Shown: piece by piece, positions 4,917 through 54,938 of the stretch
How positions within the stretch are numbered: position 1 is the first letter of the stretch
Layout: each line of letters starts with the position of its first letter
From: an uncultured virus (IMG/VR IMGVR_UViG_3300038853_000032)
Lineage: Duplodnaviria; Heunggongvirae; Uroviricota; Caudoviricetes
DNA: 56,808 nucleotides
Strand: one strand, 5' to 3'
Virus record (IMG/VR): IMGVR_UViG_3300038853_000032
Program-made: the position numbers and the translations under genes
Notes under the pieces: model-generated
What the model was told of the DNA's origin: nothing
The model's input: only the letters and a program-made list of their open reading frames with translations
Databases searched by the model: none

Positions 4917-5758
4917 TTAAAAAATCAGTTATCAGTCTAATTAGTTATGATGCTCGTTATTTACCACAAAGTATCAAAACTTACTATAATTATGTTGACG
5001 AAATTATCTTAGGACTTGATGAAAAACGAATCTCATGGAGTGGTAATAAATTTACTTTTGATGAAGAAAAGCTTTTTAAAGAATTAGAACAAATTGACGG
5101 AGATAGTAAAATTTCCGTTATCGAAGACGATTTTTATCGTGATACCAATAAATATATTGAAAACGATAACTTTGAACGAAACTTCTTAAAATCACATTGT
5201 TCTCATAATTGGGTTATGAGTTTTGATGCTGACGAAGAATTAATTAACGCTCAGCAATTCTTTACCACCTTCTGTCCAATTATCGAAAATTATCACGATA
5301 AATACGATTTTGCCTTTACCTGGTTTCTTCCGTACAAAGAATTTCCCAATGACTACTTAGTAATTGCTAATGAAGACGGTACTTTTATTCGTAGCGAAAG
5401 ACAAGGGTTCGCTACACATAAAACCAACCAATATATTTATGCCCGATGGACTAATCTTACTAAAACTCATCCAAATAGACTTATTTTTACTCCTTTAGCT
5501 ATTAAACATTGGAGTTTATGTCGCCCAAAAGATGAATTACATCAAAAAATTAATAATATTGGACACGCAGATATTACCGAAAGGGGAGATCCTTTTTATG
5601 ATATGTGGCAACAAGTTACCTTAGAAAACTATCACGAAATGAAAAACTTTAAAACCTCAGGTTTAGGGGAAGCATCTCAATGGCCTTCTTTAATAAAAAT
5701 TCCAAAAGACGTTTTTGAATCAGCAATGCGTAAAAATGCAGAAATGGTGTACTCATGA
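4913..5758 (+). CDS. glycosyltransferase, GT-A fold
   Basis: 'YLPQSIKTYYNYVDEIIL', 'ERNFLK..CSHNWVMSFDADEE' (DxD). Confidence 0.75.
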   Translation: MIKKSVISLISYDARYLPQSIKTYYNYVDEIILGLDEKRISWSGNKFTFDEEKLFKELEQIDGDSKISVIEDDFYRDTNKYIENDNFERNFLKSHCSHNWVMSFDADEELINAQQFFTTFCPIIENYHDKYDFAFTWFLPYKEFPNDYLVIANEDGTFIRSERQGFATHKTNQYIYARWTNLTKTHPNRLIFTPLAIKHWSLCRPKDELHQKINNIGHADITERGDPFYDMWQQVTLENYHEMKNFKTSGLGEASQWPSLIKIPKDVFESAMRKNAEMVYS

Positions 5759-6927
5759 AGAAAAATATAGAAATTATTGGTAAATTTTATGATAATCACA
5801 GTTTAGCTATCATTAATCGAGAAGTAGCAATTCGTTTAGGAGACGAAGAAGTATTTCCTAACATCAACTTAACTATTACTCCAGTAGATCAGTTTAATTC
5901 CGTTTATAAAATTAAAAAAGATCATATTAAAAAGTTAAAAGAACTAGAAAGTAAAGAATCAAAACCAGATATTCAAATTCGCCACACTTATCCTCCAATA
6001 TGGCGTTGGCCTGTCTCTGATAAAACTAAAATTGTTTATATCCAACCTTGGGAATACACCAAGATTCCTTTTGAGTGGCAATATAAATTTGAACAGTTTG
6101 CAGATTATTTAATTACTCCGTCTCAATGGTCTATTAATAATTTTCTAGATGCTGGGTTATCCCCTAAAAAAGCAGGAGTCGTGGCTAACGGATATGATCC
6201 TCAGATATTTAATACTGATAGCCGAATTAGAGACCCTCATTATAGTATTAACAACAAATTTACTTTTATTTTTGTTGGAAACGCTCAGTACCGAAAAGGA
6301 TTAGATATTCTTTTAAATGCGTGGCAACAAGCTACTAAACTAAATGATAACGTTAAACTAATTTTTAAAGATAGCCCTCAAATTTACGGAGAAACTGATG
6401 TTCTTAACCGAATTATTCAACTTCAGTATAAAACAGTTTGCGCTGAAATAGAGTATATTGATAAAATTCTTTCTAATCAAGAAATGGCAGATCTTTATAA
6501 ACAGAGCGAAGTGTTGATTCACCCATACCGAGGAGAAGGATTTGGAATGCACGTACAAGAAGCAATGGCAACAGGGTGTATTCCAATGGTCACAGCAGGC
6601 GGTCCAACCGATGATTTCTTAACTAATCAAAACTCCGTTAGAATTAATTCCGCCATGATTCTTCAAGACATTACTGCAGACCATATTTTTGCTATCAAAC
6701 CAGGAGACGCACTAACAATGATGGGAGCACACGGAACTATTCTAGAACCTGATGTTTCAGATTTAGTTAATAAAATAACTCAAATAATTCAGCACCCGCA
6801 AAGGGAAAAAGTAATGAATCAACTCAGAGACGCTGAAAAAACTTTACACACATGGGATAAAGTTGCAATAAGTTATGCCGAATTTATCAAAAAAATCGAC
6901 TGCACAACAAAAAATAGCAGAGACTGA
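5755..6927 (+). CDS. glycosyltransferase family 4 (GT-B)
   Basis: 'FIFVGNAQYRKGLDILL', 'HPYRGEGFGMHVQEAMATG' (E-x7-E). Confidence 0.92.
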   Translation: MKKNIEIIGKFYDNHSLAIINREVAIRLGDEEVFPNINLTITPVDQFNSVYKIKKDHIKKLKELESKESKPDIQIRHTYPPIWRWPVSDKTKIVYIQPWEYTKIPFEWQYKFEQFADYLITPSQWSINNFLDAGLSPKKAGVVANGYDPQIFNTDSRIRDPHYSINNKFTFIFVGNAQYRKGLDILLNAWQQATKLNDNVKLIFKDSPQIYGETDVLNRIIQLQYKTVCAEIEYIDKILSNQEMADLYKQSEVLIHPYRGEGFGMHVQEAMATGCIPMVTAGGPTDDFLTNQNSVRINSAMILQDITADHIFAIKPGDALTMMGAHGTILEPDVSDLVNKITQIIQHPQREKVMNQLRDAEKTLHTWDKVAISYAEFIKKIDCTTKNSRD

Positions 6928-16274: not shown

Positions 16275-16461
16275 AACGGAAACCTTAATTAAAATACAAA
16301 AACTTGCGGAAAAAGGTATAGAGCATATTATGAAACATGCACATCCTAATCCTGGAGATGGAAGATTACTAATACATACATTTGTATCTTATGATGCGGA
16401 AAAGACAGCACAGATATTCCAAGAACAACTTAATATAATTAAAAAAGTATTAAACGTATGA
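16267..16461 (+). CDS. hypothetical protein, paralog of 16053-16274
   Basis: KLAEKG ... IFQEQLNIIKKVL. Confidence 0.65.
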   Translation: MYETETLIKIQKLAEKGIEHIMKHAHPNPGDGRLLIHTFVSYDAEKTAQIFQEQLNIIKKVLNV

Positions 16462-17078
16462 AAATAAAAATATGTAATAAAGACCCCGTATTTCCGTTCC
16501 TCCTAGTAGACAATTGGTACACTAAAAAAGAACTAGAAAAAATTTGGAAAGAATTAAGTTTTTATACTGATTATGAAACAATGCCAAATGCAGCAGAAGG
16601 ACTAGCAGCAAAAGACGAAGAAGGTAACTCTAAAGCCGATTGTTATAGACTATACCCAGATGAAGTTTATACCCAAAAAGGCAGAAACACAAGCTATATT
16701 TTAAGATTTCAGCAACCAAAAATATTTTCTAATAAAATAAAACAAGCATTTCAAAAAACTAGTCCTGTGTACAGAAATTGGCAATCCTGCGACAAAGATA
16801 ACACGATAATTAGTTATTATGAGAACAATCACCATTACCATGCTCATTACGATAGCGCACAAGTAACAGCCTTAATATGGTTATACATAAAACCAAAAGC
16901 GTTTAGCGGGGGAAATCTCACTTTCACCGACAGTAATATAAAAGTGAGATGTAGATATAACCGTATGGTAATGTTTCCAGGTTTTTATGAACATCAAGTA
17001 GACCCCATAACTTTAAAAAAGAAAAAAGCAGGATTAGGAAGGTACTGCATTACCCACTTTTACAGCAATACTCGGTAA
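16458..17078 (+). CDS. 2OG-Fe(II) oxygenase
   Basis: 'YHAHYD', 'PKAFSGGNLTF', 'NRMVMFPG..EHQVDP....GRYCITHF'. Confidence 0.9.
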   Translation: MKIKICNKDPVFPFLLVDNWYTKKELEKIWKELSFYTDYETMPNAAEGLAAKDEEGNSKADCYRLYPDEVYTQKGRNTSYILRFQQPKIFSNKIKQAFQKTSPVYRNWQSCDKDNTIISYYENNHHYHAHYDSAQVTALIWLYIKPKAFSGGNLTFTDSNIKVRCRYNRMVMFPGFYEHQVDPITLKKKKAGLGRYCITHFYSNTR

Positions 17079-36461: not shown

Positions 36462-37340
36462 TTAGTGAACAGTTGCACCGTTATAAAATTCGTATGCCCT
36501 CAATAACCGTGTTATTCCAATTCCTCCTCCCACTCTAGGAATGAAATCATGATTCAAAAACTCATTCAATTCTTTCTCTACGCGTTCTTTGCTGAATTGG
36601 TTAAACAATAATTCTGCGTATTTTCCATCACTTATTGTATGAAACATATGACGCATTTCTTCAGTATCACTACTACGCTCTGCTGACCCTATTGTTTCTT
36701 GTCCAGCTATAATCACGTCTATCTTAGCAGCAGTTCCATTACCGTTTTGTTTCATATTCCAAAAAGGACTAGTATAATTAGGAAAGTTTTTTATCATACA
36801 TACTTTACCTTTCCACTTATCATGCATCGATTCTTCCTCAGCATTAGTAAGTTCTTTTACACCAAACTCATCTGTCCAATCTTCATAATCTTTAGAAATT
36901 ATTTCATTTTGAGTACTAAAATTTAAATAATCTACTAACTCTTTTTCCATAATTTCAAGTTCTACAAACGTACCGGGAAACTCAAATTCAAACATAGGAA
37001 ATATAAGTTCATGTCTTCCTTCTACTGGATTTGGTTCTTGTCTGTATGACGTAGAGATACAAAAAAACCCCTTCGAAGAGGGGCGGGTAAGTAATTCATA
37101 TTCTAACCACATCTGGCCAGTTTGCGGAAGAGGCCAAATATTGCCTGCGTAATTATAAGTGCTGACGGTAGAAGGGTCTTCACAAGCCGCCAATATACTT
37201 AATCTATTCTGGGTATGAACTTCGTGAAAACCTTTGTCCAAAAAAAATGACCTCAATAGGCCATTAATTAACGTAAAACGTTCGGGGTTAATTAGTTGTG
37301 TCATAATCTTTCCTTCCAAATTTAAAGTTTGCTTTTGCAT
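36462..37340 (-). CDS. class IIb aaRS catalytic-core protein (AsnRS-like / asparagine synthetase AS-AR-like) with no anticodon-binding domain
   Basis: Motif 1 region 'LRSFFLDKGFHEV', 'QTGQMWLE', motif 2 'SYRQE....GRH...F.MFEFE', 'PFWNMK', 'ETIGSAER', motif 3 'GGGIGITRL'; alternative start ATG 37304. Confidence 0.88.
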   Translation of the reverse strand: MQKQTLNLEGKIMTQLINPERFTLINGLLRSFFLDKGFHEVHTQNRLSILAACEDPSTVSTYNYAGNIWPLPQTGQMWLEYELLTRPSSKGFFCISTSYRQEPNPVEGRHELIFPMFEFEFPGTFVELEIMEKELVDYLNFSTQNEIISKDYEDWTDEFGVKELTNAEEESMHDKWKGKVCMIKNFPNYTSPFWNMKQNGNGTAAKIDVIIAGQETIGSAERSSDTEEMRHMFHTISDGKYAELLFNQFSKERVEKELNEFLNHDFIPRVGGGIGITRLLRAYEFYNGATVH

Positions 37341-38603: not shown

Positions 38604-38920
38604 TCTTTCACCCGTTTATCTAACTCATCAAGTTTTATTTCCAATTCTGCTATTCTTTTTTCACGTTCTTTTCTTACTAACCTGTCTAATTCATCCAATT
38701 TTGCTTCTGATTCTGTTAACCTCTTTTTTAGATGAGGAAACTTTTTAAGTCTTTTTTCTTCGTCCGTCAACATCTTTAACCCATACCGGTGATTAGCCCA
38801 GGTATAGAATTGATCCATTTTTTTATAAAACCAAATTCCTAACTTTGTTTCTCTAAACCATGAATCAGTAGCTCCTCCTATAATAGAACCTGCGATGGCA
38901 GAAAGTAACCAAAACCACAT
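38600..38920 (-). CDS. membrane-anchored coiled-coil protein
   Basis: Hydrophobic N-terminus; duplicated 'KR..E.E.KLDELD..V' segment. Confidence 0.65.
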   Translation of the reverse strand: MWFWLLSAIAGSIIGGATDSWFRETKLGIWFYKKMDQFYTWANHRYGLKMLTDEEKRLKKFPHLKKRLTESEAKLDELDRLVRKEREKRIAELEIKLDELDKRVKE

Positions 38921-39690
38921 TATTTAGAAATCCTTTCTAACTTTTGATAATAAAGCGTAACGCTATGGTCAAAAATACCGTCAAATAACTGAAACTTACT
39001 TAACGCTCTTACTCTGCCTCTAAACTGGTCTTTAATCTTTTGCCAAGGAGTTAAAGGTCTAATATTACCATAATAATTAATATAATTTAAATCTCCAGAA
39101 TGACGAAATCCTAAAAACCAAAAAGGAACCTTTGTAACAGCATCGTTATTATTAACAAATCTATGATGTTCAAAAGTACAACTTTCTATAAACTTTTTAT
39201 TACCTACCCTGGGACATCCAAAAGTGTAAACCGTTGGAACACAGGTTCCTTTATTAAGTCGAGAAGCTGCAAGAGTAGCCATTGCGGCACCAAGACTGTG
39301 CCCAGTTACATACAGTCTTCTATCTTTAAAAATAGGCCAACACTCTTTTATATCAGACCAAATCTTATTTAACTCTTTCTTAAACCCATAATGTACTCTA
39401 CCATCAACCTGAGACTCAGTTTTCCATACTTTCATATCCGCAAAAACATCACTTAATTGTGTCGGCTCAGTTCCTCTAAAAGCTATCACATACACCTGTT
39501 TATTCCAAAAAGCATATGCCTGAGCACCGTCATTGTTAAATACCTGATAATCAGTGTATTTAATTACCGCATTATCACCTTTCCAATCTGTATAAGTATA
39601 TTCAGATTCTTCAACGTATTTTTTAATTTCATCTTCGTCTTTGTAAGCTAACATAGACAAATACGCAAAATGATTCGATGATATTCCCAT
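38920..39690 (-). CDS. class 3 lipase
   Basis: 'IAFRGTE', 'VHYGF', GHSLG, 'TFGCPRVGN', 'RFVNNNDAVTKVP', 'DH'. Confidence 0.92.
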   Translation of the reverse strand: MGISSNHFAYLSMLAYKDEDEIKKYVEESEYTYTDWKGDNAVIKYTDYQVFNNDGAQAYAFWNKQVYVIAFRGTEPTQLSDVFADMKVWKTESQVDGRVHYGFKKELNKIWSDIKECWPIFKDRRLYVTGHSLGAAMATLAASRLNKGTCVPTVYTFGCPRVGNKKFIESCTFEHHRFVNNNDAVTKVPFWFLGFRHSGDLNYINYYGNIRPLTPWQKIKDQFRGRVRALSKFQLFDGIFDHSVTLYYQKLERISK

Positions 39691-39759: not shown

Positions 39760-39921
39760 TTATTTCTTCTTACGGATATAATTTCTTTTTCTTTTTTTTC
39801 TTGGTTTTGGAGCATTAGCAACTCCAAAGCTCCACCCCGCTGAAATCGTATTTTGTTTGCGTAATTTTTTTAATTTACTTGGTTTTTGACTTCTCTGAAA
39901 AAATTCAGAAACAATACTCAT
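39760..39921 (-). CDS. small very basic protein (53 aa, not in ORF track)
   Basis: MSIVSEFFQRSQKPSKLKKLRKQNTISAGWSFGVANAPKPRKKRKRNYIRKKK; TAATG-coupled. Confidence 0.65.
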   Translation of the reverse strand: MSIVSEFFQRSQKPSKLKKLRKQNTISAGWSFGVANAPKPRKKRKRNYIRKKK

Positions 39922-40196
39922 TATAATAACTTGTTAGATTGTTTATTTCGATTTAGTTTTACTAAATCCTTTACATGAGGAGATCCTTTATAATCCCCTT
40001 TTTTAAGTGTTTCATAGTAGCAACTCTGTTTTTCGTATTGCCTAGTTAGCTGCTGCTTTTGGCTTAAAGATAAAGAATTTTCAGTAAAACCTTGAACTTC
40101 ACCGCCAATACGAACAACGTTGCCTCCCCTCATTTTTTCTTGTTGATCTAATCTCTGCCATAGAGGAGGACGAGATTTTGTAGTGCGATCAACCAT
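39921..40196 (-). CDS. small basic protein
   Basis: Shares 'G.V..IG...QGF.E..L' with 40198-40554. Confidence 0.7.
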   Translation of the reverse strand: MVDRTTKSRPPLWQRLDQQEKMRGGNVVRIGGEVQGFTENSLSLSQKQQLTRQYEKQSCYYETLKKGDYKGSPHVKDLVKLNRNKQSNKLL

Positions 40197-40197
40197 T

Positions 40198-40554
40198 TTA
40201 GTAGGTAGTTCCGGTGGATTTACTCTTACGTGGACCTAATTTTCCTGAAGGGGAACTTACAGCTTTTCCGCTGGCGGATGTAAAATGAGCAACAGGATCA
40301 GCTTGTTCATTAACTCGCGCCCTGTTTGCTTCACGTGACAACTCTTCGTACTGAAAACGCGCCATCTTGCGAGAATCACTAAAAGTCGTCAAAGCATCTT
40401 CTACAAAGCCTTGAGCAATAGAACCAATTTTCATAATAACGCCGTCCCCACGCGCTTTCTTTAGCTGAGCCGCTCGTTGCTTATCAGTTAGATGAGCTGG
40501 CCCTGCATAGCGGTGAGGAGTAAAGCGTTGATGTTGAAAAATCCAACCAGCCAT
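40198..40554 (-). CDS. small basic protein
   Basis: K/R-rich; paralogous core with 39921-40196. Confidence 0.7.
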   Translation of the reverse strand: MAGWIFQHQRFTPHRYAGPAHLTDKQRAAQLKKARGDGVIMKIGSIAQGFVEDALTTFSDSRKMARFQYEELSREANRARVNEQADPVAHFTSASGKAVSSPSGKLGPRKSKSTGTTY

Positions 40555-40862
40555 TAACTCATTGACCCCTTAGCTGTAGTACCAGCCCAAGGATGTGAAC
40601 CAGAAAGTTTCTTCGCTTTCGTTGGCCCCTTGGAAACACCGTCAATTGGTTGCAATGCCGGTCCCCAAACTTTCGGGCCATCATTAATAAGACCAGGTGC
40701 TGGTTTTAGCAACTTATTAGAATTAATCGGATGAGTCCCACCACGAGGTCCTTTTGAAGTTCCTCCTGCGGGAGTCTGATCATACTCACCCATTAGGTCT
40801 GTTCCCTTTCCAGGAACTGTAAGAATACGCCGTGAAGGTGCATCTACTCCTTTTTTCGCCAT
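40554..40862 (-). CDS. small basic G/K/P-rich protein
   Basis: AAGGAG RBS, own promoter. Confidence 0.75.
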   Translation of the reverse strand: MAKKGVDAPSRRILTVPGKGTDLMGEYDQTPAGGTSKGPRGGTHPINSNKLLKPAPGLINDGPKVWGPALQPIDGVSKGPTKAKKLSGSHPWAGTTAKGSMS

Positions 40863-40910
40863 TTACTTTCTCCTTTAAAGAGGTATAAAAATAACCTCAT
40901 TAATACATTA

Positions 40911-40939
40911 ATATTACAGTGATTTTAATGAGTTGTCAA
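40911..40939 (-). promoter_or_regulatory. sigma70-type promoter
   Basis: TTGACA-17-TAATAT with AT-rich upstream element. Confidence 0.7.
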
Positions 40940-40963
40940 AATTTAAATTTTTCATCTTGCGAA

Positions 40964-41233
40964 TTAACGCCTCTTTCGTTTTATTTCTGCAATTCGTTTT
41001 AAATCAGTAGTCCCATAAAGCATTTTATAAGCTCGATCTTTAATTTTCTTGCGATCTGCAGCCGAAAGACCTTTTGCTTGCGGCAATCGCGCTAAAGCAT
41101 TGCGAGCATGGGCCTTATCAGGCATTGGAAAACGATAACGAGTTCTTCCTCCACGAGGTCCTTTTATCTTTTGAACAATCGTAGCAGTCGCTTTTCTACT
41201 CTTAGTGGATATCGTTTTTTGCTTTTCTGGCAT
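40964..41233 (-). CDS. basic protein with DUF6582-like motif
   Basis: 'RFPMPDKAHARNALARLPQ..GLS......I..RA'. Confidence 0.7.
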   Translation of the reverse strand: MPEKQKTISTKSRKATATIVQKIKGPRGGRTRYRFPMPDKAHARNALARLPQAKGLSAADRKKIKDRAYKMLYGTTDLKRIAEIKRKRR

Positions 41234-41431
41234 TTACTTACCCTTTTTCTTCTTAAACCCATATGAACCTTTAGGTTTACGAGTTCCTTTTGCAATATCA
41301 CGACGACCCTTAAGGCTTATTTTCTTACCGGATTCCTTACCACGTTTTGCAGCAAGCTGCTCGTCTTTACGATCATTATAACCTTGTTTATAACCAGCCT
41401 TATAATCTGCTGACTTTGTATTATGCGCCAT
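41234..41431 (-). CDS. small very basic protein
   Basis: AAGGAG RBS; K/R/G-rich. Confidence 0.7.
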   Translation of the reverse strand: MAHNTKSADYKAGYKQGYNDRKDEQLAAKRGKESGKKISLKGRRDIAKGTRKPKGSYGFKKKKGK

Positions 41432-45500: not shown

Positions 45501-47210
45501 TTAGTTTGTACCTACAATAAAGCCGCTAACATTACTCGGAGGCTCTGTTTTTCCAATTATAATCTGTGAAACTTCCGCAGGGATTCCGCGTAATTGTCTA
45601 TTTAAAGGCGTAACTCTTACAAGTAAAGTTACGTTAGTTCCAGTAAGACGGGTTACGTTTTGAATTGTATATCTAATTCTTCCATCACTTCCAACTCCGA
45701 GCCGGTCTACTTTAACCGTATTAAAAGATGCTATCGGAGTAAACTGATTAACACCCCCTATAAGCTGCGTTCCTGAAATTTTATATGAAATTTCATAATC
45801 AGTTACATTTTGATCAGTAATATCATCAAAAGAAATAGTAGCACGAGTAGATAATCCCCTAACCGTATCTATAAAGAAACTTTCAGTAATCTCTAAATTT
45901 CTCACTCTTCTAATTGGAATTTGTCTAACAAAAAGAGACCGACTAGTAAACTTACTCAATCGACCTGCAGAATTTTTATTACGAGCACGTACAGCATTTA
46001 AACCGAAAGGAACATTAGGAATGGTTTTTCTTGTTGTTTCTCCAAGAAAAATTTGTTCAAACTCTAACTGACTCGCTAACGAGTATATTTGGTTATTAGC
46101 TAGATTCCAGTTCCCAGGAAAAGTAGAAGCATTATAATCAAAACTAAATGTATTTGCTGGTTGAATAACATTACCAATAAAACCTGAAGGATTAGGAGTA
46201 ACGTTAAGAATAGTGCGTCCTCCCACATTAGCTTTTAAAGACTCTCCTAAAGTGATTCGATAAATAGTGTTAGCAGTTATCCTAGCGTTATAATCAGTAG
46301 CAAAAGCCGGATCGTAACTTACATTCGAGACAGCATATGTATTACCTGTAAAAAGAGTTATATTATCGCCTTTTTCAACTGCAGGAACAGTATAGTAAGT
46401 AGCCTCAGTTCTTGTTTTTCGTTGTGCCCCAGCAACCGATCCAAAATCAAAAGTTATAGTATCACTATCTAAAGTAAACGTATAAGAATCATCTTCTTGT
46501 TGAATCCCATCCACAAAAAATTTAATAAAATTTTTAGACTTAACATCTACTCCTAAAGGTAAAGTTTTAGCTCCTGTAAATCCAGAAACATTGTTCTCTA
46601 AAATTAACGTCTTTGTTGAGCCTGCTATATAAACATTACCAGCTTTTGGAGTGTTAGGTCTCCAACCAGAGGTAGTTGACGTGGTAGCCCCCTTTAAATG
46701 ATCTTTATCAATCAACTGTTGAAAAGTAACATAAAATGGAGGATCTTTTAATTTTAAAAATAAAGTTTTTGCCCCGGAATGATCGTTAACAATTTTTACG
46801 GTATTTGTAATAATATCAGATCCTACAATGTTATAAGTTAGTTCTGTAACAGTACCTCCAATTGATCCAGGAAAATCTGGCTGAGTAATATCAGTAGTTT
46901 TATCAATTACTGGAACAGTAACGTAATCATCACCTTTTATAGTTCCGCTAGCAGCTTTAAAAGTCTTGTCGTTAACCGCTAAAACGTGTTTATCAAAATT
47001 GTAATCATGTAACTGGTTAAATCCTACCAAAGTAAATTTAATATTACCATTTGGCCTCTTAATCGGGTCTTCATCCACTACGCTAACAGCATTAGCTAAA
47101 AGGGGAATGGAACCAAAAATAGTTTGAAAATTATTCTTTCCCAATAACACTGCAACTTGGTTATTAGAAAACTGACTAGTATTAGATGCTTTAAAATTTA
47201 AAGTCGCCAT
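45501..47210 (-). CDS. tail tip protein, middle part of a J-like fibre with FnIII-like domains
   Basis: 'VRARNKNSAGRLS', 'DYEISYK', 'VRVTPLN...RG', ends 'GKTEPPSNVSGF'. Confidence 0.65.
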   Translation of the reverse strand: MATLNFKASNTSQFSNNQVAVLLGKNNFQTIFGSIPLLANAVSVVDEDPIKRPNGNIKFTLVGFNQLHDYNFDKHVLAVNDKTFKAASGTIKGDDYVTVPVIDKTTDITQPDFPGSIGGTVTELTYNIVGSDIITNTVKIVNDHSGAKTLFLKLKDPPFYVTFQQLIDKDHLKGATTSTTSGWRPNTPKAGNVYIAGSTKTLILENNVSGFTGAKTLPLGVDVKSKNFIKFFVDGIQQEDDSYTFTLDSDTITFDFGSVAGAQRKTRTEATYYTVPAVEKGDNITLFTGNTYAVSNVSYDPAFATDYNARITANTIYRITLGESLKANVGGRTILNVTPNPSGFIGNVIQPANTFSFDYNASTFPGNWNLANNQIYSLASQLEFEQIFLGETTRKTIPNVPFGLNAVRARNKNSAGRLSKFTSRSLFVRQIPIRRVRNLEITESFFIDTVRGLSTRATISFDDITDQNVTDYEISYKISGTQLIGGVNQFTPIASFNTVKVDRLGVGSDGRIRYTIQNVTRLTGTNVTLLVRVTPLNRQLRGIPAEVSQIIIGKTEPPSNVSGFIVGTN

Positions 47211-50188
47211 TATGGATTCACCGTTAAAATGTCAGAGACTGCACTTGGTACAGCATATTCGTAAATAGTCTTAATTGCAATAGGATAGTTAGTAACATCC
47301 GTACTATCAGAAATATCAATATCAGTTACCACTCCTCCGTCTGGAAGCTGTCGAGGATTAGGTGTTAATATAAATTGCGGAGCTGGTGGCGCAACCAGAG
47401 GACTATAAGTATCTACATAACGAACTGGAGTATAATTAATAGCAGTATCTGAGTCAATATAAACATTAGCAATATACTCAGCTGCCGTAACTGTAACTTT
47501 CTCATCCTCGTCTCGTTGAACGTCGCTAACTTTAAACAACTTATCTGTAGTGTCACGGTAAAAATTGTCAGGATTAACCTCTCCTAAATTCCACATATCT
47601 CCACGAGCAGGTACGGTATTAGCTGTCCATGCAAAATTGACATTCCAAGTTCGAGTCTTTAAATCATAATATTCCAAAGCCTTAACCGTAACTGAATCTG
47701 AACCCCCACTTACGTTAGACGTTCCGTCTGCTTTAGTACCAGTACTCGTTATATCGTAATGATTATTACTAACAATATATAATCTCATATCATCATTACG
47801 ATTATTAAAAATCCGCATTCCTACTGGAAAAGTATTAGCCGTAAATACGGCGGAAGTAATAGCCGGAGCAGTAAAATGCTCTAAAAATACATTGGAAGTT
47901 TGAACAGTGTGAGTATTACTCGACCCTCTTAAAGCTGAATTTGCCCTTACTCGCCCTCCAAAACCCCAAGCAGTTCCTGCCAACCGTTGCTGAACTGCAA
48001 TCAAGTCTCCTGGTACTAAAGATAAAGCTGACGTATCAGTTTCAAACCCAATCTTTCGTCTTACAAACTTACTCGCGGCAATCATATATTGAGCGTATCT
48101 TACTGCTTGACTACGTCGTGTTACTCCAGGTAAATCCAAATTTTTAATATTTTCAATCTGGTTAAGAGTATCCACCGAGGTGGGATCATCAACCCTAATC
48201 GTTTCTCTTTTATAGTGGTTAGCTACATTAACGTAATTAACATCGCATCCTGTAATAATCTCACTTTCACTAATACCACTAATCTGTACTGAATCAGGTT
48301 TCATATTGCTTTCATTAAAAATCATAATAGGTATTTCATCAGGCATATCAATCTGTAAAGATAATTTTCCTCCGCTATATATAATGATAGCTCGAATAGT
48401 ACCACAAATCTGATTTATTAAATCAAAAGCTTGTTGCTGGTCAGCTAATAACAAGTCTAAAATAAAACGTCTTTCTTTTATATTAATACCTTCATTTATT
48501 CCTATTAAAGTTTCTCGAACTGTCCCAAACTTACCTTGAGGTTTATGCCGAAAAGTGCCATCAGAGATTCCATCTACCCCAACCCATTTTCCTGTTGCTG
48601 CATCAACTCCGTCACAGTATTGGGCTACCTTATAAAACTGAAATATGTCAATATTACCATCCGGTATTCCTAGACCATAAGTACTGTTAGTTAAGATGTC
48701 GTAAATTATCCAAGCAGGATTTTGCGTCCAAGAAAAAGTGAAGCTACCATCCCACACTCCTTTGTAAATTTGAGGATTAAGATCAGTTTTTAAAGTACCT
48801 GTTCCTGAACTTTGAAGTCGATACCCGTTTGTAGTGTAACCATTAACTCCTGTCTCGGGCAACTCCAACTCTCTCCAATCAACCTCTCCAGTAGACAATA
48901 TTGGTTGGTTATAATTACTAGGAACTTTTACTAACAAACCTTTTACCACACTGGTAAAAGTCGGTACCCCTCCTACGTGCTCATTAAAAGCTAATAAAGA
49001 ATACCCGATTACCGCCGTTCGAGGATAAGCAGAAACCTCATCCTTAACTTCTAACCATGTCTGGAAACTAATGGAATCTTGAATACGAGAAGAGTCTGAA
49101 TCGTTAGATATTTTTTTAATAGTAAATTTATAACCAGCCCTACTACGATTTGCTTTAGGAATAGGATACTGAATTTGAAACTGAAAAGGAACATTTGTTT
49201 TATTATTAAACTCACGTACTACTTTCTCTCCCAATACAGTAGTTCCCGTGCGATCAAAAACTTCAATCTGTATATTCAAATCTTTGTTAAAAATATTTCC
49301 TTGCTCATCTACTCTGGTAAGAGCCTGAATCTCAAAAGTAAAAATTAATTCTGAGTAATCATCAATACTAGTATTCTGAAGTATAACTTCCGATTTAGGA
49401 ATTCCCTCTACATTACCCTTTCTTAAAAAAACCCTACTTGCCAATTGTTGTGGAATTGCGGTTCTTTGCCCAAAAACTGGCATTTCTACCTGAGTTAAAG
49501 TTCCAGTACGAGTAATAGTTTTAAAAACATCCGTATTTTCCTGCCCATCTCCATCCAAATTAATTAAATCATCAATAGTTCCCTCGTTAATTTCAATATC
49601 TTGAGGCCCTAAAGGATTAACTCTATAAATGGGTCCTTCTCCTAGAGCGATAGTAGCAAAAACAATATCCGTCGAAAATAAATTATTTGGCTCTTCAGTA
49701 GGAGCAGGCGCAGGTGAACCTCCTCCTTTACCTCCTCCTTTATTATGAACTCGAAAACCATCGGCAAAAAATGTATGATAATCCTGAACAGTTATTATAT
49801 AAACAACTTGTTTAGGAATAGAGTTAATATACAAAATCTTTTGAGATTCGCCTTTTAAATCAACTAAGTAATCCCCAACCTCAAAGTTAAAGGCATAATC
49901 GTACTGTCCTGATGCTTTTAATACCCAATGATTCGGAGTTAATACTAAGTTAGCTGTTCCAAAAACAAACTCTATTAAATCTTGCTTCGCATGTGTTTCT
50001 ACCTCAGTAATGGGACGAGACATCACCTCTCCATCCGGAGTGTAACATAAAACTTTGTCTCCTATCTGACAGTCTTGGATAGGTGTACTGCCAGAAGGTG
50101 TTAATACTGAAGTATCTGCAGGAAAACAACCGCCTTTAGCACCCCAAATTTGAGGGGCTGCGTATGGAGTTATATATTCAATATGCAT
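47210..50188 (-). CDS. tail tip attachment protein J (lambda gpJ-like) with N-terminal Hint domain
   Basis: 'LGEGPI', 'YPRTA', 'KGLLVKVPSNY', 'Y.GVWDGSF...WTQNPAWIIYDILTN..YGLG', 'FYKVAQYCD', 'GVTRRSQAVR', 'PGDLIAV'. Confidence 0.92.
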   Translation of the reverse strand: MHIEYITPYAAPQIWGAKGGCFPADTSVLTPSGSTPIQDCQIGDKVLCYTPDGEVMSRPITEVETHAKQDLIEFVFGTANLVLTPNHWVLKASGQYDYAFNFEVGDYLVDLKGESQKILYINSIPKQVVYIITVQDYHTFFADGFRVHNKGGGKGGGSPAPAPTEEPNNLFSTDIVFATIALGEGPIYRVNPLGPQDIEINEGTIDDLINLDGDGQENTDVFKTITRTGTLTQVEMPVFGQRTAIPQQLASRVFLRKGNVEGIPKSEVILQNTSIDDYSELIFTFEIQALTRVDEQGNIFNKDLNIQIEVFDRTGTTVLGEKVVREFNNKTNVPFQFQIQYPIPKANRSRAGYKFTIKKISNDSDSSRIQDSISFQTWLEVKDEVSAYPRTAVIGYSLLAFNEHVGGVPTFTSVVKGLLVKVPSNYNQPILSTGEVDWRELELPETGVNGYTTNGYRLQSSGTGTLKTDLNPQIYKGVWDGSFTFSWTQNPAWIIYDILTNSTYGLGIPDGNIDIFQFYKVAQYCDGVDAATGKWVGVDGISDGTFRHKPQGKFGTVRETLIGINEGINIKERRFILDLLLADQQQAFDLINQICGTIRAIIIYSGGKLSLQIDMPDEIPIMIFNESNMKPDSVQISGISESEIITGCDVNYVNVANHYKRETIRVDDPTSVDTLNQIENIKNLDLPGVTRRSQAVRYAQYMIAASKFVRRKIGFETDTSALSLVPGDLIAVQQRLAGTAWGFGGRVRANSALRGSSNTHTVQTSNVFLEHFTAPAITSAVFTANTFPVGMRIFNNRNDDMRLYIVSNNHYDITSTGTKADGTSNVSGGSDSVTVKALEYYDLKTRTWNVNFAWTANTVPARGDMWNLGEVNPDNFYRDTTDKLFKVSDVQRDEDEKVTVTAAEYIANVYIDSDTAINYTPVRYVDTYSPLVAPPAPQFILTPNPRQLPDGGVVTDIDISDSTDVTNYPIAIKTIYEYAVPSAVSDILTVNP
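49742..50128 (-). other. Hint (intein-like/BIL) domain, 129 aa, inside J
   Basis: Block A 'CFPADTSV', block B 'LTPNHWV', block F 'VYIITV..YHTFFADG', block G 'VHN'; +1 residue is Lys; no endonuclease. Confidence 0.9.
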
Positions 50189-50191
50189 TAT

Positions 50192-50941
50192 CTAACTTGC
50201 TCCTGTTGGAAATTGAGTTGCTACTCTTATTGTTTCATTTCTTCCGTGCTGAAGACTTCTAATTTCTCCGCTTATAAATTGACCTGCTACCCGCGTTCTT
50301 CCGTAAATCATAGCCACCGGAGTTTGAGAAGCAGTTGTATTAGTTAAAGCTGTGAAAATTTTATTTTCTCTTCGAGCTTCAGTCTCGGTCGTTTGCTGTC
50401 CCTGCACTTTGGGTTTAGAAGGTTCCATAAAAAACCCTAAAACTCCTTGAAAAATCTGACTTATCCCAGCAAGAAATAAAGAACCAGGAGTAATACCTAA
50501 AAATCCTAAAGCCCCGGCCCCGATACCGCCAACTCCTGGCGACAGAATACCCGCTCCGACTCCCCAAATATTCGGAGCAGCAAAAAGAAACGCTGGGGGA
50601 TTAAGAGCAATAGCAATTAAAGCTACCCCAAAAAGAATTTGTCCTACTCTACCTCCCCCAATAAACAAGGGGACAATGTAAAACTCAGTATCATCTTCCG
50701 TTAAACGATTTAAAAAATAATCTTCAGTATCTAAAAGCCTTCTGCGTTTATTAGCCAAAGCCATATTTTCTAACTTAATATCCCCACTCCGAATCCGTTT
50801 CATATGGATACCCAAAGCAGGAAATAAATAACTTATAGAATTACGAACATCAATTAAGTCATTAACCTCAACAGTATGTTCTTTAACTCCGTTAGTATAC
50901 TTATGAAAATTAGGATGAAACTTAAGAGTAACAGCAGCCAT
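50192..50941 (-). CDS. tail assembly protein I (ubiquitin-like N-domain), copy 2
   Basis: 'IVPLFIGGG', hydrophobic Gly-rich middle, 'NTT....PVAMIYGRTRVAGQFIS'. Confidence 0.85.
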   Translation of the reverse strand: MAAVTLKFHPNFHKYTNGVKEHTVEVNDLIDVRNSISYLFPALGIHMKRIRSGDIKLENMALANKRRRLLDTEDYFLNRLTEDDTEFYIVPLFIGGGRVGQILFGVALIAIALNPPAFLFAAPNIWGVGAGILSPGVGGIGAGALGFLGITPGSLFLAGISQIFQGVLGFFMEPSKPKVQGQQTTETEARRENKIFTALTNTTASQTPVAMIYGRTRVAGQFISGEIRSLQHGRNETIRVATQFPTGAS

Positions 50942-51652
50942 TTACGTTGCTCCTACCGGAAAAGAGTCTGAGACTCTAACACTTTCGTTTCTCCCATGCT
51001 GAAAACTTCTAATTTCCCCGCTTATAAACTGACCGCCTACACGAGTTCTTCCATATACCATAGGGATTGGAGTATTAGAAGTTATCGTATTAGTTAAACC
51101 ACTAAAAATTTTATTATCCCGTCGAGCCTCTGTATCACTAGTCTGTTGTCCTTGAAAATCAGGTTTAGAAGGTTTCATAATATAACCTAAAATTCCAGAA
51201 AAAATTAAACTTATCCCTGCCAAATAAAAAGATCCTTGAGTCAATTCTAAAAAACCCAAAGCCCCACCAGGACCTAAAACACCTGAAGCTCCGAAAAGAA
51301 ACTGTGGTTGCCAAATCGCAATAGCAATTAACGCAGCTCCGATAATAAGTTTTCCTGCCTTGCCACCTCCAATAAAAAGAGGAACCACACTCAATTCTGT
51401 ATCGTCTTTTTTTAAATAATTTAGATTATAATCATCTCTTTGTAAAATTCTTCTATTCTTACCCACCAAAGCTATATTTTCTATTTTATTCGCTCCAGAA
51501 CGAATTCGTCTCATATGAAAACCCAAAGTAGGGAATAAAGTCTCTAATGCACTACGAACATCGACTAAGTCTTTTACCTCAACAGTATGTTGAGCAACCC
51601 CATCAGTGTATTTCTGAATATTGGGATGAAATTTAAGAGTCACTAAGGACAT
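50942..51652 (-). CDS. tail assembly protein I (ubiquitin-like N-domain), copy 1
   Basis: 'VVPLFIGGG', 'NTPIPMVYGRTRVGGQFIS'; closely similar to the adjacent copy. Confidence 0.85.
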   Translation of the reverse strand: MSLVTLKFHPNIQKYTDGVAQHTVEVKDLVDVRSALETLFPTLGFHMRRIRSGANKIENIALVGKNRRILQRDDYNLNYLKKDDTELSVVPLFIGGGKAGKLIIGAALIAIAIWQPQFLFGASGVLGPGGALGFLELTQGSFYLAGISLIFSGILGYIMKPSKPDFQGQQTSDTEARRDNKIFSGLTNTITSNTPIPMVYGRTRVGGQFISGEIRSFQHGRNESVRVSDSFPVGAT

Positions 51653-52020
51653 AGGTGTTTCTCAGTAAACTTTTTAAATCTTAATGAATCTATACTCCTA
51701 TCATACCAATATAAATAAAATTTTTCCTTCCACCCGACTACAAACCGATATTGTTCAAATGAGGTACTAGCAATATCATTTTCGCTAGGTAAAGGATTAG
51801 CTTGTCCAGGATGAGAATGGAATATTCCCCAACAATCATCGGGATGATCTACAAAAGCCATCGGATCTAAAGCAAAAAAGTTCTCAGGATCGGACGACAA
51901 ATTATCGTAAGGAACATACGAAAAATCTGTAGTAATAATGCCGCAACACTCTTTCGGATTCTCTTTCTCAGCATGCTGTTGCATACTCTTAATTAAATTT
52001 TCATATGTACCGGATTCCAT
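51643..52020 (-). CDS. stand-alone JAB/MPN+ metalloprotease (gpK N-domain)
   Basis: 'PKECCG', 'IFHSHP......PSEND'; likely start ATG 52020 (track ORF extends to 52074). Confidence 0.9.
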   Translation of the reverse strand: MESGTYENLIKSMQQHAEKENPKECCGIITTDFSYVPYDNLSSDPENFFALDPMAFVDHPDDCWGIFHSHPGQANPLPSENDIASTSFEQYRFVVGWKEKFYLYWYDRSIDSLRFKKFTEKHLCP

Positions 52021-52439
52021 TTGTAAGTTCCTATTGTGTATTGTTTGTAATAACGCCCATAAGGAGCAATCCAAGAAGAGTGATTTAACATGGTTTGTAA
52101 CATTTTATTTTTATCTACATAGATAGAACAGTGATTGGCACAATTCGTAGATCCAATAGTCATTATAATAAGACCGTATATTTCAGGAACATCAGTCTTT
52201 TCCCAACCATATCTCAAAGTTGCTCCTTTTTCAAAAGGTCTATCATGAGTTTTGTTATACCATTGTTCATCTAAAATATCACAAAAATCACTTGTATCAT
52301 AAGGAATATCAATACTCAGTTCTTGTCTATAAACTAAACGTACTAAATTAAAACAGTCTATCCCCTCATGAATGTCGTTCCCTAAATGTAAATAAGGAAA
52401 CCCAACATATTTTTCATACCACTTTTCGTCTGTAGACAC
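51993..52439 (-). CDS. NlpC/P60 protein (gpK C-domain-like)
   Basis: 'YVGFPY..G.....GIDCFNLVRLVY', 'NHCSIY'. Confidence 0.85.
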   Translation of the reverse strand: MSTDEKWYEKYVGFPYLHLGNDIHEGIDCFNLVRLVYRQELSIDIPYDTSDFCDILDEQWYNKTHDRPFEKGATLRYGWEKTDVPEIYGLIIMTIGSTNCANHCSIYVDKNKMLQTMLNHSSWIAPYGRYYKQYTIGTYKWNPVHMKI

Positions 52440-52836
52440 CGTAAATTTTTTCTCTCCAATCTTGATTTAACATATCAATTCGAGAATAGGACTTCTCTTC
52501 TATATGAATCATCATATTTTGCCCTATGTACATGCCGAAATGTAGCGGACTGCTCTTTTCACTCTTAAACATAATAACATCATACTCTTGTAACTGCGTA
52601 ATATCTTTTACTTCTGTAGCATACTCTTTAGTACACTCTAATAACCTTTGTAAAGTATAAATCTTCCACCAACGACTTTTTTGTTCAGGATGACCTTCTT
52701 TAATCTCTAAATAATCCCAAATCTTTTTAAAATCATCTCTTTGTAATTCTTCCTGATAAATGTCTGCAATTAAGGTAATACAATTAGTATTAAAATAATC
52801 GTGCTGACGACCTAAATATTTGCGATATTTTTGCAT
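52414..52836 (-). CDS. second NlpC/P60 protein
   Basis: 'NCITLIADIY', 'DVIMF', 'HFGMYIGQNMMIH'. Confidence 0.8.
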   Translation of the reverse strand: MQKYRKYLGRQHDYFNTNCITLIADIYQEELQRDDFKKIWDYLEIKEGHPEQKSRWWKIYTLQRLLECTKEYATEVKDITQLQEYDVIMFKSEKSSPLHFGMYIGQNMMIHIEEKSYSRIDMLNQDWREKIYGVYRRKVV

Positions 52837-54938
52837 TAACCTTGAGGAATAGTTCTACCTGTACCAATAAATCCACCAAAATGAATCTGATTATTTCTTA
52901 ACTTACAAGCAACAAAACTTTTTGCACAAACATCGTTAGCTTTAACAGTATCAACAGAAACATTTTTATCAGTAAAGAAACCGTTAGCTCTAAAAACAGT
53001 TTCTCCAGAGGTTCCAGGAATTAACCCTGTTCCATCTGAGGGATATTGACATTCTTCTCCTTTATAAATCCAAGGGCAGGTATTCTTATAATATTTACGT
53101 CGAGGAAAACTAAGCTTAAAATATTGTAACCAACTAGTTAAGTTAAATTCTGCAAATGCCCCATTCAAACTTTGAAGCTGATCGACTTTAAAAACATCTT
53201 CCACATAAGCATCTGTATCAGCGTCTGGATTTACAATAAATAGAGGAGTCCCCAAACCAACATTAGAAAATGGTACGCTAGTTTCAATAAAGTTACCGAC
53301 AATATTTACTACATTAGCATGATTTCCCCGAGACCCCTTAATCGTAACATTATCTCCAATTCGATAAGGAGCTGTGCTGTAAAGTTCTACCACATTACCA
53401 TTTAAAGAAAGAATACTACTGTACTCAGGCCAATAATCTAAAAAGTTTGCAAAAGTAGATTTAATTCTAACTACACCACCTAACAGATCCCTTGAATCAG
53501 CTTTTCCAGGAACCCATGTCCCACCAATAGTAGAACAACGGTCATAAGTAATAGCAGCATTAACAGTGCCAGCGTAATCACTATCTACCACATCCTGATC
53601 AAAAAGAGCATTAGTAGGAATAGTATAAGGATCAAGATTGCCTAAAATCTCAAAATTAACTGTTCCATAAGCAGCATTAGCGCAATTACCAACTAAAAAA
53701 GGGTCTTCTACAATTTGAGCAATTAGCGAATCGAAGTTAGCAATTTTTACACTAGTTTGATTAACCTCTCCACTTTGAGATAGGCCGATGCCTCCAGAAT
53801 CTATGGGATAACATAGATAAGAATCACCATCATAATAAGCCCTGTAAGAAATATCAGAAATAGTATCCCCACGAACCTCTGCAAAACGATAAGGAAAACC
53901 AAAAGGCCACGCCAACCCATCTCCTTCCCCTGTCGGGTTTCCAGCTCCGTTAGCAGGAAACCATTCTCCAGGATAGAAAATATCATATAACCTTACTAAA
54001 GGAGGTTGTTCAAAAGCATTTTTAATACGGACGAACCCAGAAGTATCTAAACGTAAAAGTTTAGTGACCGCAATTGTATTTTGTTCTGAAAATACAGGAG
54101 CGTTGTAGGGAACAGACTCGGTATTACCACTAACAATTCTAACCGACAAATTAGCATCTTTACTTTGAGGAAAAGTGGCAACAGTAACAAAATTATTATT
54201 AACATTACGAACTGCTACATCAAATGTTTCAGTCGCAAAGCCTGGAAGTTGTTGTCCTTTACTACCTGTTCTTATTCGTCCACTCCTATCCCGATTTACA
54301 GGAACCTGTCGTTCTCTCTGTTCAAAAGCCTCAATAAACTTTTGTTGTGTATTAGCAGCATCAACAATTTGACCGTTAGGGCCAACCCCTCGTCCTTCTG
54401 AATCAGTTTTAATAGATATCAAACCCTCTCCAGGTTCAAAAATAAAAGGAACAATATCAAATCCAGCCCGTCCTAAACCGTTAAGAGCATTAGTACTGGG
54501 ATAAATAATTAAATCTTTTCTTAATGGAATCCCATCCACTTTAACAGTGATCTCTGACGCATTTAAATTAGCAAAGTCAGTTGCGCTTTCTCCATCATCA
54601 GTCGTGGTAGGAAGAGCAAAAGTATTAGTTGCCCCATTAATAATAAAGTTATTTCCATTAACAGTCGTGGTCGCAGCATTAGAGTAAAACTGAATAGCTG
54701 AAAAAGGAACTCCCGCTGCAGTAGTACCAGTAGTTTGAATCACATTACAATGAACAAATTCCCCCACTTCATATTCATTGACAAGGTTATTAACTTTGAC
54801 TTTTAAAAGATTATTAGCCAAATCTTGAAAAATAATCTCTCCAGAAGTTTCAGAAGTATTACCAATTGCTTGTAGCCCAACAGTAAAATTTTGAGCTGCT
54901 TTAAGAAATAGCTTATAATCATAAGTGCGAGTAGACAT
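52836..54938 (-). CDS. enlarged minor tail protein L (gpL-like)
   Basis: C-terminal 'CPWIYKGEECQY...DVCAKSFVACKLR....HFGGF' four-Cys (Fe-S) motif. Confidence 0.85.
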   Translation of the reverse strand: MSTRTYDYKLFLKAAQNFTVGLQAIGNTSETSGEIIFQDLANNLLKVKVNNLVNEYEVGEFVHCNVIQTTGTTAAGVPFSAIQFYSNAATTTVNGNNFIINGATNTFALPTTTDDGESATDFANLNASEITVKVDGIPLRKDLIIYPSTNALNGLGRAGFDIVPFIFEPGEGLISIKTDSEGRGVGPNGQIVDAANTQQKFIEAFEQRERQVPVNRDRSGRIRTGSKGQQLPGFATETFDVAVRNVNNNFVTVATFPQSKDANLSVRIVSGNTESVPYNAPVFSEQNTIAVTKLLRLDTSGFVRIKNAFEQPPLVRLYDIFYPGEWFPANGAGNPTGEGDGLAWPFGFPYRFAEVRGDTISDISYRAYYDGDSYLCYPIDSGGIGLSQSGEVNQTSVKIANFDSLIAQIVEDPFLVGNCANAAYGTVNFEILGNLDPYTIPTNALFDQDVVDSDYAGTVNAAITYDRCSTIGGTWVPGKADSRDLLGGVVRIKSTFANFLDYWPEYSSILSLNGNVVELYSTAPYRIGDNVTIKGSRGNHANVVNIVGNFIETSVPFSNVGLGTPLFIVNPDADTDAYVEDVFKVDQLQSLNGAFAEFNLTSWLQYFKLSFPRRKYYKNTCPWIYKGEECQYPSDGTGLIPGTSGETVFRANGFFTDKNVSVDTVKANDVCAKSFVACKLRNNQIHFGGFIGTGRTIPQG

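Follow-up and report, generated by a model that had tools for sequence, protein, structure and literature searches.

Type-A bacterial intein-like (BIL) domains are Hint domains that end in His-Asn and lack a nucleophile at the following (+1) position (PMC4031507); they form an N-terminal thioester, cleave at the terminal Asn, and can ligate their flanks through the freed alpha-amine, with cleavage dominating (PMC4031507). In lambda-type tail modules, a JAB metalloprotease has been proposed to cut the tail assembly protein gpI at the glycine ending its ubiquitin-like domain (Iyer, Burroughs and Aravind 2006, PMC1779556). Here, we analyzed a 56,808-nucleotide stretch of DNA from an uncultured marine phage (IMG/VR record IMGVR_UViG_3300038853_000032; hereafter, the window), in which a lambda-type L, K (JAB and NlpC/P60), I, J neighborhood includes the gene for a tail-tip protein J of 992 amino acids (open reading frame (ORF) 50188..47210, minus strand). 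The N-terminus of J consists, in order, of a 20-residue leader ending in GAKGG, a Hint domain running from Cys21 to Asn149, and the tract KGGGKGGG. An initial annotation, made from the sequence alone, had described this anatomy (leader GAKGG, Cys, TPNH, VHN, KGGGKGGG) exactly, in agreement with the ORF translation; the range it gave, 49730-50188, includes the Hint (50128..49742) but also covers the leader and half of the Lys/Gly tract.

The Hint domain of J, its spread, and its absence

By sequence definition, J residues 21-149 are an intact type-A BIL Hint, for which processing activity is predicted. The domain carries Cys1, His46, Thr64, His67, His128, and Asn129, with TPNH at Hint positions 64-67, VHN closing at J residue Asn149 (Hint Asn129), and Ile111 at block-F position 4. 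It scores 34.5 bits against the Pfam family PT-HINT (PF07591; cut-off 27.7), and matches the Pfam Hint profile over positions 13-94 of 213 only, under the cut-off. Its best PDB sequence match is the Clostridium thermocellum BIL 2LWY (E 9e-8). An AlphaFold model built from 27 sequences (predicted local distance difference test score, 81.7) has BIL2 (6y75, E 7e-12) as its best fold match, followed by 2LWY (E 1e-9), and gives no fold for J residues 1-20. The marks of a type-A BIL occur together: a Hint fold with Cys1 and block-B Thr and His; a terminal His128-Asn129 followed by Lys, with no Cys, Ser, or Thr at +1; no homing endonuclease; and a length of 129-134 residues in 103/103 Hints of J homologs (J-Hints). 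The site occupied is a variable Gly tract, whereas the host protein J is conserved.

Other Hint classes fit less well. Lys+1 separates the domain from class 1 inteins, Thr being found at this position in 2/103 relatives. The BUBL pattern would call for a folded ubiquitin-like N-extein, whereas only 20 residues precede the Cys of J, and of the BUBL zinc site, the counterpart of His48 is present (His46) but the His125 position is Ile in this Hint. There is no sterol-recognition region of the Hedgehog (Hog) kind, J following the Hint directly, and an equivalence of His46 with Hedgehog Asp46 is not supported by the pairwise alignment, which is offset by two so that Asp46 pairs with Glu44. A pattern scan of the window detected no second intein-like candidate with Hint termini. 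The initial annotation was right that canonical splicing is impossible at Lys+1, but its term "non-canonical" does not suit a domain with His-Asn and no +1 nucleophile, which is the ordinary type-A BIL pattern.

The arrangement is neither chance nor an assembly error, since the leader/Hint/J junctions are identical in 17/17 close viral loci and at least half of the words of the stretch were found in runs of 13 marine or aquatic studies, a possible source study not being counted. A search with J residues 1-230, a query that favors Hint carriers, gave 129 matches; among the 120 listed were 103 complete Hints at the same site (by pattern) and 14 Hint-less proteins, the rest being one Ser variant, one N-terminally truncated protein, and one unrelated alpha-2-macroglobulin. 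A second search with the J body alone, made to avoid this bias, returned 46 proteins with a Hint among the top 57 (42 by script and 4 by eye), alongside 8 complete Hint-less and 3 N-terminally truncated ones; the next 63 J proteins were all Hint-less and nearly all also devoid of the Gly/Lys tract. Among the best 150 representatives (50% identity) from a profile search, 61 had a complete Hint directly preceding the J domain; one protein without Cys1 (P0231) was excluded as probably frameshifted with respect to P0270. The cassette also occurs in phage-like tail operons of named bacterial genomes (Castellaniella, Oxalobacter, and a Betaproteobacteria bin). Queries from the window and from a second clade (clade B, below) retrieved no Hint-J at 80% coverage from 50,697 cultured phage records; the partial match AUS531phi has the leader and no Hint. 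The placement of a Hint in J is, thus, widespread and optional. The chemistry of such Hints is already known; no description of one in J was found in full-text literature, in a search judged mostly by title and abstract and with most subscription journals outside its scope; in the phiCbK and CBB papers, Hint domains come up solely in connection with terminase and other inteins.

Hint-bearing and Hint-less forms coexist among close relatives, as the survey of J homologs suggested in the initial annotation reveals. Within the best 80 of the 602 clade B loci, the Hint is present in 59 and missing from 20 (J identity, 88-99%), with one locus left unassigned. A tree was made of 68 loci, after removal of 7 short or unanchored ones and 5 duplicates; on it, the loss label requires 9 changes, at least 3 of them forced, and on the 53-row tree of the window's own clade, it requires 4, at least 3 of them forced. 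The Hint-less relatives P0043, P0087, P0042, and L066 continue directly through the Hint site, and L066 has the appearance of a clean loss between two Gly tracts. The Hint is, therefore, dispensable. Contigs of four runs contained no Hint-skipping joint across 49000-51000, although rare variants are lost in contigs and two of the runs had patchy coverage. Two Hint-less clade B loci have an extra ORF of 222 amino acids between L and K (L039:3947-4618, L069:3950-4618).

Where present, the Hint is under purifying selection and as constrained as J. Cys1, Thr64, His67, and Asn129 are invariant in 103/103 J-Hints and His128 is kept in 102/103. His46, which lies outside the standard blocks, is found in 103/103 J-Hints and in 61/61 representatives vs 69/186 non-J Hints, and aligns gap-free with BIL2 His48, a zinc ligand (PMC8616854). 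Block-F position 4, corresponding to BIL2 His125, is Asn in 95/103, Thr in 7/103, and Ile in the window's phage. The median ratio of nonsynonymous to synonymous substitutions (dN/dS), from nonindependent pairs kept at dS 0.1-1.5, was 0.19 for the Hint and 0.18 for the first 300 J codons in one set (19 pairs), 0.07 and 0.06 in a second (275 pairs), and 0.21 and 0.17 in a third (7 pairs). The dS of the Hint is similar to that of J in the same pairs and Hint identity tracks J identity (Spearman 0.64), indicating that the Hint is old and mostly co-inherited with J. Its GC content and third-codon-position GC content (GC3) are 0.357 and 0.24, against 0.370 and 0.23 in the J body; together with dS, these values rule out a recent horizontal arrival.

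The leader, the flanks, and a second site

The leader of J ends in P-Q-I-W-G16-A-K, and the first domain of both gpI proteins of the window ends in P91-L-F-I-G95, with Pro91 and Gly95 invariant in 20/20 gpI proteins; the match is imperfect in that the motif glycine is followed by Gly in the window's gpI and by Ala in its J. A model of residues 1-105 of the first gpI paralog resembles CysO, MoaD/MOCS2A, SAMP1, and ubiquitin with a probability near 1, the best E value being 3e-3 and no match reaching E ≤ 1e-3 in the fold search. The leader motif P-x-[IV]-x-G-[AGSE] is present in 38/38 members of the window's clade, and a similar pattern occurs in 51/63 distant Hint-less J proteins vs 106/5150 background windows. 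As the motif is also found in Hint-less J, the leader predates the Hint and does not depend on it. In the cultured phages ANB28 and HK639, x-G-[AS]-K occurs in gpI as well as in the J leader, and cultured RHph_TM16 has it in the J leader. Judged by this motif, the ubiquitin-like glycine of J is Gly16 and not Gly19-Gly20; the latter, which the initial annotation had taken for the ubiquitin-like element before Cys, was discarded as a ubiquitin-type C-terminus.

By analogy with gpI, P-x-I-x-Gly16 is likely the cut site of the adjacent JAB. A bacterial JAB cuts after Gly97 in Val95-Ala96-Gly97-Ala98 (10.1101/2023.09.26.559546), and in lambda gpI, the resolved part starts only at residue 134 or 135 (PMC12617516, PMC10721106). 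In the F-pyocin plug, the N-terminus is removed by proteolysis, its mechanism being described as unknown (10.64898/2026.02.24.707460), and T1 gp33 was modeled from residue 13 (PMC11945409). A predicted complex of the JAB, J residues 1-60, and zinc scored 0.26 against a mark of 0.34, which bears neither way.

The residue preceding Cys1 is Gly in 102/103 J-Hints. At +1, the 103 J-Hints have Ala (56), Lys (38), Gly (7), or Thr (2), and the 61 representatives Gly (54), Ala (4), Lys (2), or Gln (1). The 38 members of the window's clade were separated from the 103 by their +1 residue, a division that agrees with the J tree; in this clade, Lys+1 is present in 38/38 and Lys+5 in 35/38, and positions -2/-1 are Gly-Gly in about 23/38, with Lys at -2 in 15/38. 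Lys+1 is fixed there and replaced by Gly or Ala in most other J-Hints, and is thus a mark of the window's clade. Close strains vary Gly152 and Gly155 and retain Lys150 and Lys154. The alignment with lambda gpJ begins by pairing gpJ residue 3 with Lys154, and the structure of gpJ in virions is resolved starting at residue 1 (PMC12617516). At the DNA level, the Lys/Gly tract is encoded by two identical tandem 12-bp units, each with a Shine-Dalgarno-like AAGGAGG; no in-frame start follows them, and the likeness probably reflects codon bias.

The duplication of the leader site was examined in 59 representatives with a single, complete Hint, tandem and truncated cases being excluded and three rows being corrected by eye. 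Fourteen of them resemble the window in having one site, before the Hint, whereas in 45/59 the Hint is followed by a second [IV]-x-G-[AS] site; the upstream site is kept in 57/59, and the upstream leader in 64/65 J-Hints of the second-site group. Lys follows the site in both copies in 4/44 script rows and in neither in 40/44. The co-varying cases possibly share one origin; in L067, both copies read G-A-S-T and differ at five synonymous positions.

Proposed self-excision and the competing explanations

The reading that we favor, and to which we give about half of our confidence, is that the Hint excises itself in cis and leaves a normal J N-terminus. J would be made as a precursor of leader, Hint, and J; Cys21 would form a thioester with Gly20, and cyclization of Asn149 would free Lys150. 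The thioester would then be hydrolyzed, so that J begins at Lys150, or be attacked by the freed alpha-amine, which would join the leader to J and recreate the sequence of a Hint-less allele. The adjacent JAB would trim the leader after Gly16, just as a cut after Gly95 has been proposed for gpI. Both routes would yield a short Gly/Lys N-terminus resembling that of lambda gpJ, and the Hint module would act as an optional steric cap or timer at a position that tail-tip maturation would cut in any case. Self-excision is favored on several grounds: a side-chain nucleophile is missing at +1 in most J-Hints, Hint-less alleles continue directly through the site, lambda gpJ starts at the equivalent tract, and related Hints are found in tape-measure-like proteins and, in P0244, behind the ubiquitin-like motif of a gpI (see below). 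The +1 residue lacks a side-chain nucleophile (Gly, Ala, or Gln) in 59/61 representatives, which fits a side-chain-independent route. That autoprocessing might expose the mature N-terminus of J had been suggested in the initial annotation and suits the start of lambda gpJ at the post-Hint Lys/Gly tract; the third type-A BIL route, linear ligation through the freed alpha-amine, was missing from the routes listed there.

Several observations weigh against self-excision. One review holds type-A BILs unable to ligate (PMC7765530), Lys+1 and Lys+5 are nearly fixed in the window's clade, and Ile at block-F position 4 may weaken the N-terminal chemistry of the window's Hint. Where a second site follows the Hint, the JAB alone should free J and self-release would be unnecessary, yet the Hint (dN/dS 0.07) and the first leader are conserved. 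Simple self-removal fails to explain this conservation, which is the main unexplained result.

It counts in favor of ATP-free tagging of the BUBL kind, Cys1 and the upstream leader being kept even where the second site makes both redundant. The Gly20 thioester would pass the leader, or Ala-Lys-Gly-Gly after a JAB cut, to the epsilon-amine of Lys150, Lys154, or a lysine of another tip protein; the JAB would trim the branched product and the Hint would replace E1 and E2. The top fold match, BIL2, forms Lys isopeptides without ATP (PMC8616854), a precedent for the ATP-free lysine linkage raised in the initial annotation, and its zinc ligand His48 aligns with His46, invariant in J-Hints; however, the second ligand, His125, is replaced by Asn, Thr, or Ile. 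The two leader copies co-vary, although J-Hints are related, so that both this and His46 may have been inherited once. The lysines at +1 (38/38) and +5 (35/38) of the window's clade also speak for tagging, but +1 is a residue other than Lys in 59/61 representatives, the Lys/Gly tract is also found in Hint-less J and in lambda, and near-identical J proteins do without the cassette. With Lys+1 in 38/103 and 2/61 J-Hints, ligation to the adjacent Lys, the form proposed initially, is not a general mechanism, and we regard tagging as unlikely on present evidence. Its extension to lambda-type tail tips at large is a tentative idea that we also rate as improbable: the tip would carry a minimal ATP-free ubiquitin-like cycle, in which the leader is a stripped-down ubiquitin-like tail that the Hint, taking the part of E1/E2, activates as a thioester and passes on to a lysine in J or elsewhere in the tip. 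The JAB would then trim it, and the branched or capped product would time assembly or block host Bil-type conjugation. Covalent cross-linking of J subunits was ruled out by reasoning, as the thioester carries the detached leader only.

Quite improbably, the Hint would be a passenger without benefit that entered the Gly tract by recombination, was tolerated as self-cutting at a trimmed site, and is randomly gained, lost, and duplicated, its residues being kept only because a dead copy blocks J. The mixture of Hint-bearing and Hint-less alleles within a single population (9 changes, 3 or more of them forced), the resemblance of L066 to a clean loss, the tandem Hints of three J proteins and of bacterial Tim44-domain proteins (up to four in the latter), and the lack of the Hint in 63/63 more distant J proteins, nearly all without the Gly/Lys tract, would all suit such a passenger. 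It has no homing endonuclease, however, and is old and mostly co-inherited (dS, Spearman 0.64); moreover, a second JAB-type site should make a dead Hint harmless, yet 0/65 are dead.

A role in counter-defense against Bil appears very unlikely. Bil targets the central tail fiber, and its authors speculate that tail deubiquitinases are anti-defense factors (10.1101/2023.09.04.556158); presence/absence polymorphism combined with purifying selection also recalls accessory conflict modules. The polymorphism is equally compatible with the other readings, and the portion of the Bil report available gives no acceptor site on the fiber (10.1101/2023.09.04.556158). Least credible of all is an unprocessed Hint that stays in virion J and serves there in structure or binding. 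The Ile that the window's phage has at block-F position 4, where a polar residue is usual, would accord with this, but every other catalytic residue is invariant, the lambda tip contains gpJ in ordered form from residue 1 onward (PMC12617516), and near-identical J proteins lack the domain.

Gene neighborhood, related Hints, and known systems

The J body matches phrog_31 at E 1e-97 and lambda gpJ at E 1e-27. The JAB gene product scores 42.7 bits against Pfam Prok-JAB (cut-off 25), with no sequence match in PDB. The two gpI paralogs are 61% identical to each other; the duplication (50192-51652) is shared by L012 and L098-L111, and one contig of run X9 jumps 750 bases within it, with a 30-base anchor on one side, probably a repeat artifact. 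Strain variation is concentrated at 50470-50640, the hydrophobic plug region of the second gpI.

Table 1. Features of the J locus and the upstream tail genes in the window.
Feature	Position	Strand	Remarks
J leader Met1-Gly16, ending P-Q-I-W-G	50141..50188	-	putative mimic of a ubiquitin-like C-terminal strand
Ala17-Lys18-Gly19-Gly20	50129..50140	-	short N-extein that would be left if the JAB cuts; Gly20, predicted thioester carbon
Type-A BIL Hint, 129 amino acids, without endonuclease	49742..50128	-	J residues 21-149
Lys150-Gly157, KGGGKGGG tract	49718..49741	-	+1 residue, predicted mature N-terminus
Lambda-type tail-tip/hub J body	47210..49717	-	phrog_31, PF24801, PF13550, lambda gpJ
Tail assembly protein I, second paralog, 249 amino acids	50192..50941	-	phrog_32; ubiquitin-like domain ends Pro91-x-x-x-Gly95
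Tail assembly protein I, first paralog, 236 amino acids	50942..51652	-	phrog_32; ubiquitin-like domain ends Pro91-x-x-x-Gly95
Stand-alone JAB/MPN metalloprotease (gpK N-terminal half)	51643..52020	-	Prok-JAB; Glu and His-x-His...Ser-x-x-Asp motif
Two NlpC/P60 genes (gpK C-terminal half equivalents)	51993-52439, 52414-52836	-	Pfam NLPC_P60, both above cut-off
Enlarged minor tail protein L	52836..54938	-	Pfam Phage_tail_L; phrog_18

Related Hints occur in several other contexts. In P0244, a gpI protein, the Hint comes right after the ubiquitin-like domain motif and a Gly run, a ubiquitin-like-Hint fusion resembling BUBL. P0246 and P0254 have weak matches to tape-measure proteins, with the Hint just upstream of Ala-x-Gly-Gly; in lambda, the protease that cuts gpH close to a Gly-rich region is described as unknown (PMC12617516). 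Three J proteins (P0123, P0137, P0156) carry two tandem Hints separated by a Gly run ending in Lys-Gly or Lys-Gly-Gly. Bacterial membrane proteins with a signal-like N-terminus (P0121, P0124, P0130, L159:744-3660) have 3-4 tandem Hints with KG/KGG spacers, followed by a Tim44-like domain in all three that were scanned (P0121, P0124, P0130). In the alpha-2-macroglobulin P0111, the insert Gly-Gly-Gly, Hint, x-Lys-Gly lies between the bait-region and A2M domains, and the flanks of L130, L133, L137, L141, L142, L149, and L151 are similar to it (by flank comparison only). Proteins of about 300 amino acids from Bdellovibrionales and Patescibacteria bins (L114, L119, L121, L126) have a J-like Hint with His46, flanked by repeated P-x-A-x-A-D and a Gly/Asp tail, that is, the duplicated-site layout with another motif. 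Among non-J bacterial Hints, Lys+1 is found in 145/186, those of Tim44-domain proteins included, a count biased upward by a profile that included the flanks.

Elsewhere in the window, the left arm encodes a D5-like regulator, NAD ligase, SbcCD, primase, helicases, and polymerase, a replication module that we take to be T5-like. Four 2-oxoglutarate-Fe(II) oxygenase genes, three of them in tandem, are located at 931-2928 and 16458-17078, near genes for a peroxiredoxin (4076-4690) and a glycosyltransferase (5755-6927). An ORF of 292 amino acids (36462-37340; phrog_29758, function unknown) has motifs that presumably resemble the catalytic domain of class II tRNA synthetases of the Asp/Asn type. 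A lipase/esterase gene (38920-39690; phrog_21992) and, after the tail genes, a run of small, very basic ORFs (39921-41431) are also present.

The role of gpK and its JAB in lambda-type tail assembly is a long-standing question, and the data point to a second JAB substrate, the J leader, which copies the ubiquitin-like tail of gpI with or without the Hint; being present in the cultured phages ANB28, HK639, and RHph_TM16, it can be tested at once. The J-Hint is a compact, strongly conserved type-A BIL with a natural +1 Gly, Ala, or Lys. If it ligates efficiently, it would offer a traceless protein-ligation tool free of the Cys/Ser/Thr requirement; if its product is a Lys isopeptide, a virus would be using ATP-free, ubiquitin-like conjugation on the very protein attacked by the bacterial Bil defense; and if it only cuts itself, known chemistry would be found in a new, optional place. 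The tandem Hint arrays of the Tim44-domain proteins are a sharp discriminator of ligation vs cleavage.

Compared with described systems, the J-Hint shares with type-A BILs (2LWY, PF07591) its short, endonuclease-free form, Cys1, block-B Thr-x-x-His, His-Asn, and the lack of a +1 nucleophile; however, described members are in variable bacterial proteins (PMC7765530), whereas the J-Hint has a set position in a virion protein that is conserved, follows a protease-like motif, and has an invariant extra His46. Like BIL2 of Tetrahymena thermophila BUBL1 (6Y75, 6TMM), it is not built for canonical splicing, lies behind a ubiquitin-type element, and has His46 in the place of His48, but J has a 20-residue leader rather than a folded ubiquitin, the His125 ligand is not kept, and the isopeptide has been demonstrated for BIL2 (PMC8616854), whereas it is a candidate product for the J-Hint. 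The fold and N-terminal chemistry recall class 1 mini-inteins (gp41-1, Mtu RecA), and Hint-less alleles match precise excision; with no Cys, Ser, or Thr at +1, however, the branched-intermediate route is unavailable to the J-Hint. The Hedgehog autoprocessing domain (1AT0) has the Hint fold with a Cys1 thioester (fold E 2e-7), whereas no sterol-recognition region follows the J-Hint and Asp46 aligns two residues before His46. Finally, the locus has the gene set and order of the lambda/T1 L-K-I-J module (PMC1779556), including a gpI beta-grasp-like domain ending in P-x-x-x-G, but in the window, gpK is split into three genes, gpI is duplicated, and J carries a gpI-motif leader and a Hint, neither of which is present in lambda J.

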